Source: Escherichia coli O157:H7 (lineage in GTDB: Bacteria > Pseudomonadota > Gammaproteobacteria > Enterobacterales > Enterobacteriaceae). Taken from it: a stretch of 64,000 bases of DNA. Below, piece after piece: positions 318-44,962 of this stretch. How positions within the stretch are numbered: position 1 is the first letter of the stretch; every line of letters begins with the position of its first letter. The DNA is taken from the NCBI RefSeq assembly GCF_013167455.1, contig NZ_CP038328.1; one strand, given 5' to 3'. Both the position numbers and the translations under genes were made by a program. Under the pieces are notes generated by a model. That model had not been told where the DNA came from. It ran no database searches and was given only the letters and a program-made list of their open reading frames with translations.

Positions 318-580
318 AAGGAGTCCCTCCGCACTGTCTGAAACAGTACAGAAATGTCTTCAGGCGTGGCGAAGCCTTACCTGAAGGTAATAAAGCTGAG
401 CAGGGACGTTAAAACGTCACGGCCTTACGCATCCGGTAACGCCGTGAAAAGACGGGCTTACCGGAAAAGTTTTAATCTCCGTCGAGGGAGAGGCGTGGGA
501 TCAGGTTCCATATAACCTCCGGTAAGTGAAAAAAGCGCCGCAAATAATAAGGAGAATCCAATAATATTCGTAGCATCTAT
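318..580 (-). promoter_or_regulatory. mgtA 5' leader (long regulatory leader, Mg2+/proline-responsive) containing mgtL
   Basis: ~265 nt between predicted PhoP-dependent promoter and mgtA ATG; contains proline-rich leader ORF; fits known mgtA leader architecture. Confidence 0.7.
458..511 (-). CDS. mgtL: mgtA leader peptide MgtL, 17 aa ([17 protein letters not shown])
   Basis: Last 17 codons of ORF-track entry 458..799(-) start at ATG and encode the proline-rich MgtL peptide; the rest of that 113-aa ORF is a spurious upstream extension overlapping treR. Confidence 0.8.
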
Positions 581-1761: not shown

Positions 1762-3183
1762 ATGATGAGCAAAATAAACCAAACGGATATCGATCGGTTG
1801 ATTGAACTGGTCGGCGGGCGCGGCAATATTGCGACGGTGAGCCACTGTATTACTCGCCTGCGCTTTGTCCTCAACCAACCGGCCAATGCCAGACCGAAAG
1901 AAATTGAGCAACTCCCCATGGTGAAAGGCTGTTTCACCAATGCCGGGCAATTTCAGGTGGTGATTGGCACCAACGTGGGTGATTACTATCAAGCACTGAT
2001 AGCGTCAACCGGACAGGCGCAGGTTGATAAAGAGCAGGTAAAAAAAGCCGCCCGGCAGAATATGAAATGGCATGAGCAGTTGATCTCTCATTTCGCAGAG
2101 ATCTTCTTCCCGTTGCTGCCCGCGTTGATTAGCGGCGGTTTGATCCTCGGTTTTCGCAATGTGATCGGCGATTTGCCCATGAGCAACGGTCAAACGCTGG
2201 CGCAAATGTACCCTTCCCTGCAAACGATCTACGATTTTCTGTGGTTGATCGGTGAAGCGATCTTCTTCTACCTGCCGGTCGGGATTTGCTGGTCAGCGGT
2301 GAAAAAAATGGGCGGCACGCCGATCCTTGGTATCGTGCTTGGCGTGACACTGGTTTCCCCCCAACTGATGAACGCTTATCTGCTCGGGCAGCAGCTGCCG
2401 GAAGTGTGGGACTTTGGCATGTTCAGCATCGCCAAAGTGGGCTATCAGGCGCAGGTGATCCCGGCACTGTTAGCCGGGCTGGCGCTGGGCGTTATTGAAA
2501 CTCGCCTTAAACGCATCGTGCCGGATTACCTCTATCTGGTGGTGGTGCCCGTCTGTTCGCTGATCCTCGCGGTGTTCCTCGCCCATGCGCTGATTGGTCC
2601 GTTTGGTCGCATGATTGGCGATGGCGTTGCCTTTGCGGTACGTCACCTGATGACCGGCAGCTTTGCTCCGATTGGCGCGGCATTGTTTGGCTTCCTGTAC
2701 GCCCCGCTGGTGATCACCGGTGTACACCAGACCACGCTTGCTATTGATTTGCAGATGATTCAAAGCATGGGTGGTACGCCAGTGTGGCCGCTGATTGCGC
2801 TGTCGAATATCGCTCAGGGCTCCGCCGTGATAGGCATTATCATTTCCAGCCGCAAGCACAATGAACGCGAGATCTCCGTGCCTGCGGCGATCTCCGCCTG
2901 GCTTGGGGTCACTGAGCCTGCAATGTACGGCATCAACCTGAAATATCGCTTCCCGATGCTGTGCGCGATGATTGGTTCTGGTCTGGCAGGATTGCTATGC
3001 GGCCTGAACGGCGTTATGGCGAATGGCATCGGCGTAGGCGGCCTGCCGGGAATTCTCTCGATTCAACCGAGCTACTGGCAGGTGTTTGCGCTGGCAATGG
3101 CTATCGCCATCATCATCCCGATTGTACTCACCTCGTTTATCTATCAGCGGAAATACCGCCTGGGCACGCTGGACATTGTTTAA
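1762..3183 (+). CDS. treB: PTS trehalose-specific EIIBC component, 473 aa
   Basis: Full ORF, polytopic membrane protein with N-terminal EIIB cysteine motif (TVSHCITRLRF); followed by treC. Confidence 0.97.
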   Translation: MMSKINQTDIDRLIELVGGRGNIATVSHCITRLRFVLNQPANARPKEIEQLPMVKGCFTNAGQFQVVIGTNVGDYYQALIASTGQAQVDKEQVKKAARQNMKWHEQLISHFAEIFFPLLPALISGGLILGFRNVIGDLPMSNGQTLAQMYPSLQTIYDFLWLIGEAIFFYLPVGICWSAVKKMGGTPILGIVLGVTLVSPQLMNAYLLGQQLPEVWDFGMFSIAKVGYQAQVIPALLAGLALGVIETRLKRIVPDYLYLVVVPVCSLILAVFLAHALIGPFGRMIGDGVAFAVRHLMTGSFAPIGAALFGFLYAPLVITGVHQTTLAIDLQMIQSMGGTPVWPLIALSNIAQGSAVIGIIISSRKHNEREISVPAAISAWLGVTEPAMYGINLKYRFPMLCAMIGSGLAGLLCGLNGVMANGIGVGGLPGILSIQPSYWQVFALAMAIAIIIPIVLTSFIYQRKYRLGTLDIV

Positions 3184-3191
3184 TTTTCTTC

Positions 3192-3209
3192 GGGGCGCAA
3201 TTGCGCCCC
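3192..3209. other. perfect 18-bp palindrome GGGGCGCAATTGCGCCCC in treB-treC intercistronic spacer (RNA stem-loop)
   Basis: Sequence is its own reverse complement; lies between treB stop and treC start. Confidence 0.6.
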
Positions 3210-3232
3210 CTCGCATTTGCAGGAATAACGTA

Positions 3233-4888
3233 ATGACTAATCTTCCCCACTGGTGGCAAAACGGCGTTATCTACCAGATTTATCCAAAGAGTTTTCAGGA
3301 CACCACGGGTAGCGGCACCGGCGATTTACGTGGCGTTATCCAACGCCTGGACTATCTGCATAAACTGGGCGTTGATGCCATCTGGCTAACCCCCTTTTAT
3401 GTCTCTCCGCAGGTCGATAACGGTTACGATGTAGCGAACTATACGGCGATTGATCCCACCTACGGCACGCTGGACGATTTTGACGAACTGGTGACGCAGG
3501 CAAAATCGCGCGGGATTCGTATCATTCTCGATATGGTGTTTAACCATACCTCTACCCAACATGCCTGGTTTCGCGAGGCGCTGAACAAAGAAAGCCCTTA
3601 CCGCCAGTTTTATATCTGGCGCGATGGCGAACCAGAAACGCCACCGAACAACTGGCGTTCAAAATTTGGCGGTAGTGCGTGGCGCTGGCATGCGGAAAGC
3701 GAACAGTACTATTTGCATCTCTTTGCACCAGAACAGGCGGATCTCAACTGGGAGAATCCAGCGGTACGCGCAGAGCTGAAAAAAGTCTGTGAGTTCTGGG
3801 CCGATCGTGGGGTCGACGGGTTGCGCCTGGATGTGGTGAATCTGATCTCCAAAGACCCGCGTTTCCCTGATGACCTGGATGGCGACGGGCGTCGCTTCTA
3901 CACCGACGGGCCACGAGCACACGAGTTTTTGCACGAGATGAACCGCGATGTGTTTACGCCACGCGGGTTAATGACCGTAGGTGAAATGTCCTCCACCAGC
4001 CTTGAGCATTGCCAGCGATACGCGGCACTGACAGGCAGTGAATTGTCGATGACCTTTAATTTTCATCACCTGAAGGTCGATTATCCCGGTGGTGAAAAAT
4101 GGACGCTGGCTAAACCTGACTTTGTGGCGTTGAAAACATTGTTCCGCCACTGGCAACAAGGAATGCACAACGTAGCATTGAATGCCTTGTTCTGGTGTAA
4201 CCACGATCAGCCGCGCATTGTTTCTCGCTTTGGTGATGAAGGTGAATACCGCGTGCCTGCGGCAAAAATGCTGGCGATGGTGCTGCATGGCATGCAGGGA
4301 ACGCCGTATATCTACCAGGGCGAAGAGATTGGCATGACCAACCCGCATTTCACGCGCATTACTGACTATCGCGACGTAGAGAGCCTCAATATGTTTGCCG
4401 AGCTGCGCAACGATGGGCGTGATGCCGACGAGTTATTGGCAATCCTCGCCAGTAAATCCCGTGACAACAGCCGCACGCCCATGCAATGGAGCAACGGCGA
4501 TAATGCCGGGTTTACGGCTGGCGAACCGTGGATTGGCCTGGGCGATAACTATCAACAAATCAACGTAGAAGCCGCGCTGGCCGATGAGTCCTCGGTGTTT
4601 TACACCTACCAAAAGTTAATCGCACTGCGTAAGCAGGAAGCCATCCTGACATGGGGCAATTACCAGGATCTGCTGCCAAACAGCCCTGTATTGTGGTGCT
4701 ATCGCCGTGAATGGAAGGGGCAAACCTTGCTGGTCATTGCCAACCTTAGCCGTGAGATCCAACCCTGGCAGCCAGGGCAAATGCGCGGCAACTGGCAGCT
4801 TGTGATGCATAACTACGAAGAAGCCTCACCACAACCCTGTGCCATGACTTTACGGCCTTTTGAGGCTGTCTGGTGGTTACAGAAGTAA
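3233..4888 (+). CDS. treC: trehalose-6-phosphate hydrolase, 551 aa (GH13)
   Basis: ORF-track 3086..4888 starts at an upstream TTG; the real start is the ATG giving MTNLPHWWQNGVIYQIYPKSF; alpha-amylase family motifs present. Confidence 0.95.
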   Translation: MTNLPHWWQNGVIYQIYPKSFQDTTGSGTGDLRGVIQRLDYLHKLGVDAIWLTPFYVSPQVDNGYDVANYTAIDPTYGTLDDFDELVTQAKSRGIRIILDMVFNHTSTQHAWFREALNKESPYRQFYIWRDGEPETPPNNWRSKFGGSAWRWHAESEQYYLHLFAPEQADLNWENPAVRAELKKVCEFWADRGVDGLRLDVVNLISKDPRFPDDLDGDGRRFYTDGPRAHEFLHEMNRDVFTPRGLMTVGEMSSTSLEHCQRYAALTGSELSMTFNFHHLKVDYPGGEKWTLAKPDFVALKTLFRHWQQGMHNVALNALFWCNHDQPRIVSRFGDEGEYRVPAAKMLAMVLHGMQGTPYIYQGEEIGMTNPHFTRITDYRDVESLNMFAELRNDGRDADELLAILASKSRDNSRTPMQWSNGDNAGFTAGEPWIGLGDNYQQINVEAALADESSVFYTYQKLIALRKQEAILTWGNYQDLLPNSPVLWCYRREWKGQTLLVIANLSREIQPWQPGQMRGNWQLVMHNYEEASPQPCAMTLRPFEAVWWLQK

Positions 4889-4900
4889 ATCTTCCCTAAG

Positions 4901-4934
4901 CCCCGGTAATGCCGGTCATTCCGGGGTTTTGTCT
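4901..4934 (+). terminator. rho-independent terminator after treC
   Basis: GC-rich hairpin CCCCGGTAATGCCGGTCATTCCGGGG followed by TTTTGTCTG. Confidence 0.6.
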
Positions 4935-7429: not shown

Positions 7430-7600
<171 letters not shown>

Positions 7601-10704: not shown

Positions 10705-10820
10705 GTATGGTTTGCCGGATGCGGTGCACCTGTAGGCCTGATAAGACGCATCAAGCGTCGCATCAGGCACTATGCTCAAATGCCGGATGCGGCGTGAACG
10801 CCTTATCCGGCCTACGCACA
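10705..10820. repeat. REP elements between yjgA and mpl
   Basis: GCCGGATGCGG...CCTTATCCGGCCTAC and GTAGGCCTGATAAGACGC...CGCATCAGGC motifs. Confidence 0.85.
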
Positions 10821-16959: not shown

Positions 16960-17075
16960 AGCGTGCTCCCAGTAGGCATGATAAGACGCGGTAAGCGTCG
17001 CATCAGGCTTCAGTGCACCATCGCCGGATGCGGCGCGAGCGCCTTATCCGGCCTACGAATCGGCATCAGGCATAG
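16960..17075. repeat. intercistronic REP elements between ytfQ and ytfR
   Basis: GTAGGCATGATAAGACGCG...CGCATCAGGC and GCCGGATGCGGCGCGAGCGCCTTATCCGGCCTAC motifs. Confidence 0.85.
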
Positions 17076-26504: not shown

Positions 26505-26612
26505 TTTATGCCGGATGCGGCGTAAACGCCTTGCCAGGCCTACAAAATCGTCCAAATTCAATATATTGCAAGGACTGCGTAGGCCTGATCGGCATAGCGC
26601 ATCAGGCAGTTT
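26505..26612. repeat. REP elements downstream of msrA
   Basis: GCCGGATGCGGCGTAAACGCCTT...GGCCTAC and GTAGGCCTGATCGGCATAGCGCATCAGGC motifs. Confidence 0.8.
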
Positions 26613-26784
26613 TGCATTTTTCAGCTGTCTGAATTTTAACCCTCTGGCGGCTTTACAGTACCTTACGCTATACTAGCCACTGAAAATGCCGGTTCACTTT
26701 CTTCGAATCGGCTTTCAATGTGTATTTCACACAAATTAATCAACTTCCCCTTCCGAGGATCTGGCCTGAAAGGTCGGATAAGAT

Positions 26785-31262: not shown

Positions 31263-31451
31263 TTCTCCACCTCGTCTCTGTGAGCGGTGTTAACTTATTG
31301 TTTTACTTATACCCTATCATTAATGAATGCGCCAACTGTGATAGTGTCATCATTTTCAAAGCGTAAAATTGTGGCATTCTTCACTGTTCTATAAGTAAGA
31401 CGTTTATTCTCCCTTTTCTTTCGTATTCCCGATGATAAAAGGATGTCCCTG

Positions 31452-44240: not shown

Positions 44241-44654
<414 letters not shown>

Positions 44655-44962
44655 TTATTCAGCCTCCTGTCTGGGTCAGCCGAATCCCGGGGAGGCAAGG
44701 AACGTGTTAAAGGTCGGCTGAAAAATGACGCGTTATAGTACTGACATACCCCGCTAAACTCAAGGCCAGCCGACAAATAAATCTCATCTTTCACCAAAGT
44801 GGACTAACACGCTGATTTGAAGTTCATCACACTTCATCATGGTGTTTTTTCGAACAACTGCATCAGAAATGGTCACCATCAACTTCTTTATCATTGATTA
44901 AAATTAAATCAGAAGATCATCACAGAGGAGAGCACACAAAGTCAGCCGTCGAGGAGGTATCT

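Follow-up and report, generated by a model that had tools for sequence, protein, structure and literature searches.

The trehalose genes treB and treC lie on the + strand of the window analysed here (the whole 64-kb stretch of Escherichia coli O157:H7 DNA, from contig NZ_CP038328.1). Their identities are taken from the RefSeq annotation of identical E. coli genomes; a 250-nt query spanning the hairpin site described below has 100% identity to many E. coli strains, and the matched stretches carry treB and treC annotations. The features of the region are collected in Table 1. The treC start codon is the ATG at 3233, and the treB-treC spacer (3184–3232) is 49 nt long. Its hairpin starts 8 nt past the treB stop, and its end is separated by 11 nt from the treC Shine-Dalgarno sequence AGGAA and by 23 nt from the ATG (7 nt lie between AGGAA and the ATG). 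The 8 nt that follow the stem, CUCGCAUU in the RNA and CTCGCATT in the DNA, contain three T/U, only one of them in the first six positions. Between the hairpin and the Shine-Dalgarno sequence, at +4 from the mapped RNA 3' end (below), position 3218 is T in the window and C in K-12 MG1655 (CATTTGCAGG versus CATTCGCAGG). Farther upstream, in the treR-treB intergenic region, positions 1683–1696 hold a perfect 14-bp palindrome, CGGGAACGTTCCCG, then TTTTTAAATT; the terminator scan lists it as terminator-like, and both the CG at its centre and its location upstream of treB resemble those of an operator for a LacI-family protein (TreR).

Table 1. Features of the treBC region (positions in the window)
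Feature	Position	Strand	Basis
treB, PTS trehalose EIIBC, upstream cistron	1762..3183	+	ORF list, RefSeq annotation of identical genomes
treB stop codon TAA	3181-3183	+	ORF list
Pyrimidine tract UUUUCUUC, directly 5' of hairpin	3184..3191	+	Sequence, 72 orthologous spacers
Hairpin GGGGCGCAATTGCGCCCC	3192..3209	+	Sequence, fold, RNAalifold, compensatory changes, stem identity
Hairpin 5' arm GGGGCGC	3192-3198	+	Sequence
Hairpin loop AAUU	3199-3202	+	Sequence
Hairpin 3' arm GCGCCCC	3203-3209	+	Sequence
In vivo mapped RNA 3' end	3214	+	Term-seq (Adams et al. 2021), aligned to window
GC↓AUU around mapped end, fits RNase E core RN↓WUU (putative site)	3213..3217	+	Motif of Chao et al. 2017
treC Shine-Dalgarno AGGAA	3221..3225	+	AGG invariant in 72 sequences
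treC, trehalose-6-phosphate hydrolase, downstream cistron	3233..4888	+	ORF frame, RefSeq annotation
Operon-end intrinsic terminator, CCCCGG...CCGGGG then TTTTG (comparison reference)	4901..4932	+	Term-seq end at 4932

The first-pass annotation of this DNA had reported a perfect 18-bp palindrome in the spacer, and GGGGCGCAATTGCGCCCC does lie at exactly 3192–3209 on the + strand and is perfectly self-complementary. It is the sole perfect palindrome of at least 16 bp within the window. Markov-1 simulations gave a mean of 0.31 perfect 18-bp palindromes per 64-kb window, and because 22% of the simulated windows hold at least one, the count alone proves nothing and is compatible with chance; a search for GGGGCGCN4GCGCCCC with at most two mismatches likewise finds one match in 64 kb against 0.38 expected. 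When the + strand RNA is folded, a 7-bp all-G·C stem with a 4-nt loop is predicted at about -15 kcal/mol, and this structure dominates the spacer ensemble. The palindrome reflects, at the DNA level, a stable RNA hairpin of the polycistronic treBC mRNA; such a stem-loop had also been proposed in the first pass, and the predicted energy, the compensatory changes and the variable loop (below) all agree with it. The exact 18-bp palindromy is incidental and the conserved object is the helix, because the AATT centre is rare and other genera keep the stem but vary the loop. At the treC start the folds show another, separate pairing: the Shine-Dalgarno AGGA (3221–3224) is predicted in E. coli to pair with UCUUCC in treC codons 4–6 (about 3243–3250), and across the orthologues the Shine-Dalgarno sequence has a mean predicted probability of 0.57 of being paired with any partner. 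This AGGA-UCUUCC pairing may be a weak translational structure.

A genome scan for TreC gave 80 species-level loci from more than 20 genera of Enterobacteriaceae, and the alignment analysed consists of 72 distinct stop-to-ATG spacers (that of the window and those of 71 other species). The same hairpin is found across these 72 spacers, so the conservation that had been suggested as a check on the palindrome is indeed present across the Enterobacteriaceae. RNAalifold returns exactly the same helix and no other in the spacer. On this structure 99.2% of the cells pair in the standard way, and compensatory two-sided changes that keep the pairing are present at four of the seven pairs; the arms are GGGGUGC/GCACCCC in Citrobacter gillenii-type genomes, GGGGCCG/CGGCCCC and GGGGCCA/UGGCCCC in Buttiauxella, and GGGCGCGG/CCGCGCCC in Franconibacter. 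None of 500 shuffles reached the observed pairing values, and controls in which the structure was slid along the alignment were only 53–73% paired. We regard the covariation as supportive and not overwhelming, since the independent events are few and come from about four lineages. The loop has 24 variants of 3–6 nt, the most frequent being AGUU (25 of 72); AAUU, the centre that gives the perfect DNA palindrome, is present in only four of the spacers.

Pairwise identity among the 72 spacers is 0.956 in the stem columns, compared with 0.58 at fourfold-degenerate sites in the neighbouring treC codons (themselves highly conserved), 0.52 in the loop and 0.55–0.60 in the flanks. By a different measure, the mean frequency of the commonest base (not a pairwise identity), the CAGGAA columns at the treC Shine-Dalgarno sequence stand at 0.95 and the stem columns at 0.98. 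Judged by this alignment, the helix is evidently under strong selection. Pyrimidines make up about 90% of the 8 nt that immediately precede the stem in the 72 orthologous spacers, in all genera, and we found no explanation for the role of this tract. The operon-end terminator behaves quite differently: its hairpin differs completely between genera (CCCCGG…, GCCCGG…, GGAGATACAGC… or REP-like), whereas the intercistronic hairpin keeps one sequence throughout, although the comparison is affected by the fact that synteny also changes at the operon end. Conservation of the intercistronic stem sequence goes well beyond that of the terminal terminator. Downstream of the stem, the T-content of the tail ranges from one to seven of 8 among the genera while the hairpin is invariant, so the conserved function would sit in the hairpin and not in the U-tract; from this pattern, selection would act on the hairpin, and the contribution of any transcription termination at the site would differ between lineages.

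Within E. coli the element is nearly fixed. A 41-nt segment at this site is present in 5,423 of 5,426 complete E. coli genomes, unchanged in 4,963 of them, and occurs once per genome; in one of the variants sampled, the outermost pair is changed from G·C to G·U. Strain SL124 (NZ_CM194971.1, L082:1501-1545) has naturally lost 16 nt between two TTGC repeats, and with them the hairpin's 3' arm and the position of the mapped 3' end, but retains the treC Shine-Dalgarno sequence (its spacer reads GGGGCGCAATTGCAGGAATAACG), so that this allele is a ready-made natural hairpin mutant. In E. coli O145:NM FWSEC0002 (L083:1501-1640) a deletion fuses treB and treC, which are annotated as two partial pseudogenes, and the spacer and hairpin are gone. 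Beyond E. coli, Klebsiella pneumoniae has an 8-bp version, GGGGCGCC-UUU-GGCGCCCC, and the 164-nt treB-treC spacer of Buttiauxella gaviniae (L080) contains an ERIC-like repeat (…AAGTAAGTGACTGGGGTGAGCG…) in place of the GGGGCGC hairpin. The gene arrangement differs in Siccibacter colletis (L062), where treC is not preceded by a treB reading frame and the hairpin is missing. In Citrobacter sp. Res13-Sevr-PEB04-36 (L014:2400-2450) an apparent 1-nt insertion in treB (CCAGACGTAAG) leads to a premature stop 31 nt early; it could be a real frameshift or an assembly error, and the hairpin there is intact.

A search of a plasmid collection yielded tre examples from Erwiniaceae, Aeromonas and Firmicutes only. 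Two Erwiniaceae megaplasmid copies and Bacillus thuringiensis have no hairpin and have treB-treC spacers of 13–18 nt, and in Aeromonas caviae this spacer is about 90 nt long and holds an unrelated G+C-rich hairpin, GGCGGAGC...GCUCCGCC. The element thus seems to be strongly kept in the Enterobacteriaceae and yet not indispensable to a tre operon, since the Erwiniaceae megaplasmid copies and B. thuringiensis do without it.

A published Term-seq map places an RNA end at the hairpin. Adams et al. (2021, eLife, PMC7815308; Supplementary file 1, sheet LB OD 0.4) list a 3' end at MG1655 position 4464728 (- strand) with an average count of 425,606 and the class 'primary' for treB. Each printed string in that file gives the end nucleotide with 50 nt before it and 10 nt after it, a register that we verified with the thrL, sgrS and aspV rows. 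On the window this end falls at C3214, 5 nt past the stem, and the RNA terminates in ...GCGCCCCCUCGC-3'. The first-pass annotation had taken the palindrome to be an mRNA stability or processing element or a protein-binding site and had named end mapping as a way to find out. The strong 3' end 5 nt downstream of the hairpin in E. coli K-12 is what is expected of a stability or processing element and favours that half of the proposal; the protein-binding half fares badly, as the loop varies over 3–6 nt and the changes in the arms are compensated so as to keep pairing.

The operon-end terminator has its own row, at 4463010 (-), which corresponds to window position 4932, with a count of 64,109 (Adams et al. 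2021, PMC7815308). The 3'-end count at the treB hairpin is 6.6-fold higher, and, although such read counts are only roughly quantitative, this hints at an excess of treB-only RNA. Same-strand counts of a similar order are listed for 3' ends near rpsT (as an orphan) and at dapD. Both tre ends are listed in exponential LB only and are absent from the LB OD 2.0 and M63-glucose sheets, so they appear to track expression of the operon. The tre operon is induced by trehalose and repressed by glucose, and the pattern of conditions fits this. Term-seq ends may stem from termination or from processing (Adams et al. 2021, PMC7815308). A Rho-dependent termination site with a trimmed end is not supported, since the Rho termination-region table of the same paper, which is built on bicyclomycin read-through and may under-call, has no entry in treB/treC (4463xxx–4464xxx). 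Our search of the literature on treB or treC in combination with intergenic, hairpin, RNase E, ProQ, Hfq or sRNA found nothing on the hairpin (the 1994–95 treB/treC sequence papers lay outside this search), and its RNA end appears so far to have been recorded only as a supplementary-table row and not to have been studied on its own account.

The site thus combines a helix that is conserved through compensatory changes and that forms a stable stem-loop directly 3' of treB on the mRNA strand with, in E. coli, an abundant in vivo 3' end a few nucleotides past the stem when the operon is expressed. We consider it moderately probable that a treB-only RNA owes its 3' end, and the protection of that end, to the hairpin, which would block exonucleases once the transcript has been cleaved and might also work as a weak terminator. 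The end in E. coli would be made mainly post-transcriptionally; efficient release of RNA polymerase is unlikely in E. coli and Salmonella because the tail is U-poor (three and one U in 8, respectively). An RNase E-like endonuclease would act on the single-stranded GC↓AUU that separates the stem-loop from the treC ribosome-binding site, or perhaps on sites farther downstream, the 3'-to-5' exonucleases PNPase and RNase II would then be halted by the 7-bp G·C stem, and the treB segment would thereby be insulated from decay of the treC segment. The mapped end is at the distance at which 3' exonucleases stall before a stable stem. In the genera with six or seven U after the hairpin, the polymerase probably also terminates intrinsically in part of the rounds, to the same effect, and the two mechanisms are not mutually exclusive. 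As to the cut itself, the core motif of RNase E is RN↓WUU (Chao et al. 2017), to which the mapped end conforms; CGCATTT is present in 32 of the 72 orthologues and some match to RN↓WUU in 44. The supplements of a Salmonella RNase E cleavage map (TIER-seq) contain no entry for treB or treC, and no treB/treC entry was found in the TERMITe supplements.

The main alternative, which we regard as possible but rather unlikely, is that the hairpin is a leaky, non-canonical intrinsic terminator or attenuator at which polymerase stops a few nucleotides past the stem in some rounds of transcription; it would give more treB than treC transcript with no difference in half-life. The hairpin is G+C-rich with a short loop, as in canonical terminators, and the RNA end lies 5 nt downstream of it, compared with 6 nt at the treC terminator. 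The absence of a T-tract remarked on in the first pass is real, as CTCGCATT has three T in 8, fewer than the five or so (at least) U in 8 of a canonical terminator, and the consensus terminator scan does not report the site. Efficient intrinsic termination by E. coli RNA polymerase depends on a proximal U-tract. The E. coli tail CUCGCAUU thus counts against a terminator there, as does that of Salmonella with its single U, and the hairpin is equally conserved in these U-poor lineages. On the other hand, six or seven T in 8 follow the same hairpin in seven of the 72 orthologues (examples are those of Kosakonia, Trabulsiella and the Klebsiella oxytoca group, together with L060 and L063), where it looks like a true terminator. 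The tail score is -2.1 at the treB hairpin versus -4.6 at the operon-end terminator; the best scores (Kosakonia, L060 and L063) equal that of the real treC terminator, and 52 of the 72 orthologues pass a cut-off of -2.5, with formula and cut-off after TransTermHP. The fact that no Rho dependence is listed is also consistent with an intrinsic terminator.

Published decay data bear on both of these explanations. Dar & Sorek (2018, PLoS Genet, PMC5927463) included treC-treB among 390 analysed operons (S2), a set purged of operons with an intergenic stem-loop plus U-tract, and treBC was retained; the terminator motif filter of their pipeline thus did not flag the spacer, which speaks against a terminator. 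The operon is not among their 47 operons with correlated differences in half-life and level (S3), a list that required both criteria and whose pairs have ratios of roughly 2-fold or greater (Dar & Sorek 2018, PMC5927463). Since both criteria were required, this absence argues against a sizeable difference in decay between treB and treC, and it fits a transcriptional mechanism better than one based on decay; any difference in decay may be small, and partial termination is compatible with the result. The 6.6-fold excess of 3' ends is in tension with the absence of a called difference in decay.

It is improbable, in our estimation, that the hairpin serves to modulate treC translation, by blocking re-initiation coupling, as a standby-site element or by sequestering the Shine-Dalgarno sequence together with the pyrimidine tract. 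The hairpin does end close to the Shine-Dalgarno sequence and ATG (11 and 23 nt), the pyrimidine tract upstream of it is complementary to AGGAA and is paired with it in the K. pneumoniae minimum-free-energy fold, and the hairpin-less lineages have spacers (13–18 nt) suited to coupling. But RNAalifold gives no second conserved helix, and partition-function folding of the 72 spacers gives a median predicted probability of 0.02 for the pairing between tract and Shine-Dalgarno sequence, with values above 0.5 in only two of the 72, and on these two grounds an anti-Shine-Dalgarno clamp was rejected. A role in translation would leave the mapped 3' end unexplained, although it is compatible with an exonuclease barrier at the same place. 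A further candidate, for which we see only a slim chance, is that the spacer yields a stable treB-3'-derived RNA, or carries a sequence-specific 3'-hairpin module of the ProQ or Hfq type, that regulates trehalose or carbon metabolism post-transcriptionally. The near-invariant GGGG...CCCC stem, the obligatory pyrimidine/U-rich tract and the very abundant 3' end suggest that the hairpin may be more than a passive barrier.

A site acting at the DNA level, whether bound by a dimeric regulator or forming a cruciform or other DNA structure, is very improbable, in spite of the perfect 18-bp dyad in E. coli and its near-invariant half-site GGGGCGC. The centre varies in both sequence and length (the 24 variants above), and changes in one arm are matched in the other so that pairing and not sequence is kept; for these reasons a palindromic operator for a dimeric transcription factor was rejected. 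The site is, moreover, within the transcription unit, 1.5 kb from the promoter, a TreR-type palindrome being present upstream of treB instead, and an RNA end maps beside it. Lastly, a chance palindrome with no function is scarcely credible even though perfect 18-bp palindromes are not rare at this scale (see the simulations above), since the sequence is conserved far above neutral sites in more than 20 genera, is close to fixation in E. coli and coincides with a strong, experimentally mapped RNA 3' end, and the covariation and the stem identity relative to fourfold-degenerate sites effectively refute a chance origin.

No Rfam family matches the treB-treC hairpin. Rfam hits above the gathering score elsewhere in the window, at 411–526 (-), 7436–7506 (-), 10735–10812 (-), 16975–17053 (-), 26544–26723 (+), 31329–31451 (-) and 44634–44718 (-), are the Mg riboswitch (mgtA leader), three copies of naRNA4 (REP-derived), ES036 and STnc450, ES239 and the RpsF leader. 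Membership of the tre hairpin in the REP/BIME family was rejected, as its pattern has one match in 64 kb, it is single copy per E. coli genome and its sequence is different.

Among known systems the closest likeness is to the stem-loops between malE and malF in the malEFG operon. Both are G+C-rich stem-loops after the first cistron of a sugar-uptake operon, both are at the 3' end of an RNA that contains the upstream gene only, and in both cases a block to PNPase and RNase II after an endonucleolytic cut has been proposed. The mal stabiliser is reportedly a classical case, said to go back to the work of Newbury et al. in 1987. The mal element is made of REP repeats, which have hundreds of genomic copies, whereas the tre hairpin is single copy, 18 nt long and unrelated in sequence; and a differential decay of about 3-fold has been measured for malE versus malF, whereas none is reported for treB versus treC. 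The REP-based 3' stabiliser model for malEFG is described by Dar & Sorek (2018, PMC5927463), and the protective 3' structures that they report are, like the tre element, stable hairpins conserved in the Enterobacteriaceae with a steady-state 3' end just downstream, for which the proposed model is cleavage by RNase E and then arrest of the exonucleases, as we suggest for tre. Those structures are mostly inside the downstream coding region, whereas the tre hairpin is intergenic and treBC was analysed by them and not called.

Rho-independent and partial terminators inside operons also resemble the tre element in having a G+C-rich hairpin and a 3' end a few nucleotides on, and in some genera the tre spacer has the full U-tract as well. 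Unlike canonical terminators, the tre hairpin has no U-tract in E. coli, Salmonella and Citrobacter, and its upstream flank is pyrimidine-rich, not A-rich. The Hfq- or ProQ-bound 3' hairpins of mRNA-derived small RNAs provide a third comparison, in that a U-rich stretch is followed by a G+C hairpin at an abundant 3' end. The Hfq module is said (the description is ascribed to Ishikawa et al., 2012) to comprise a U-rich stretch, a hairpin and a U-tail, and in Kosakonia-type tre spacers the U-tail is present too. In E. coli the tre tail is CUCGC and not poly(U), and the likeness is a lead only. One such mRNA-derived small RNA is MalH, which comes from the malG 3' end (PMC8081044).

Seen against these systems, the tre hairpin is a further example of the known elements that form or stabilise RNA ends within operons, and the gain in knowledge is incremental. 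It is a clean, single-copy, non-REP intercistronic hairpin that would give a shorter first-gene transcript in a classical sugar operon, and, if this is true, expression of the transporter TreB and of the hydrolase TreC is not strictly coupled. It also comes with a natural series, one stem having tails that run from U-poor (Salmonella and E. coli) to fully terminator-like (Kosakonia and Trabulsiella), and with the E. coli deletion allele; such a series could reveal how one element shifts between a decay barrier and a partial terminator.
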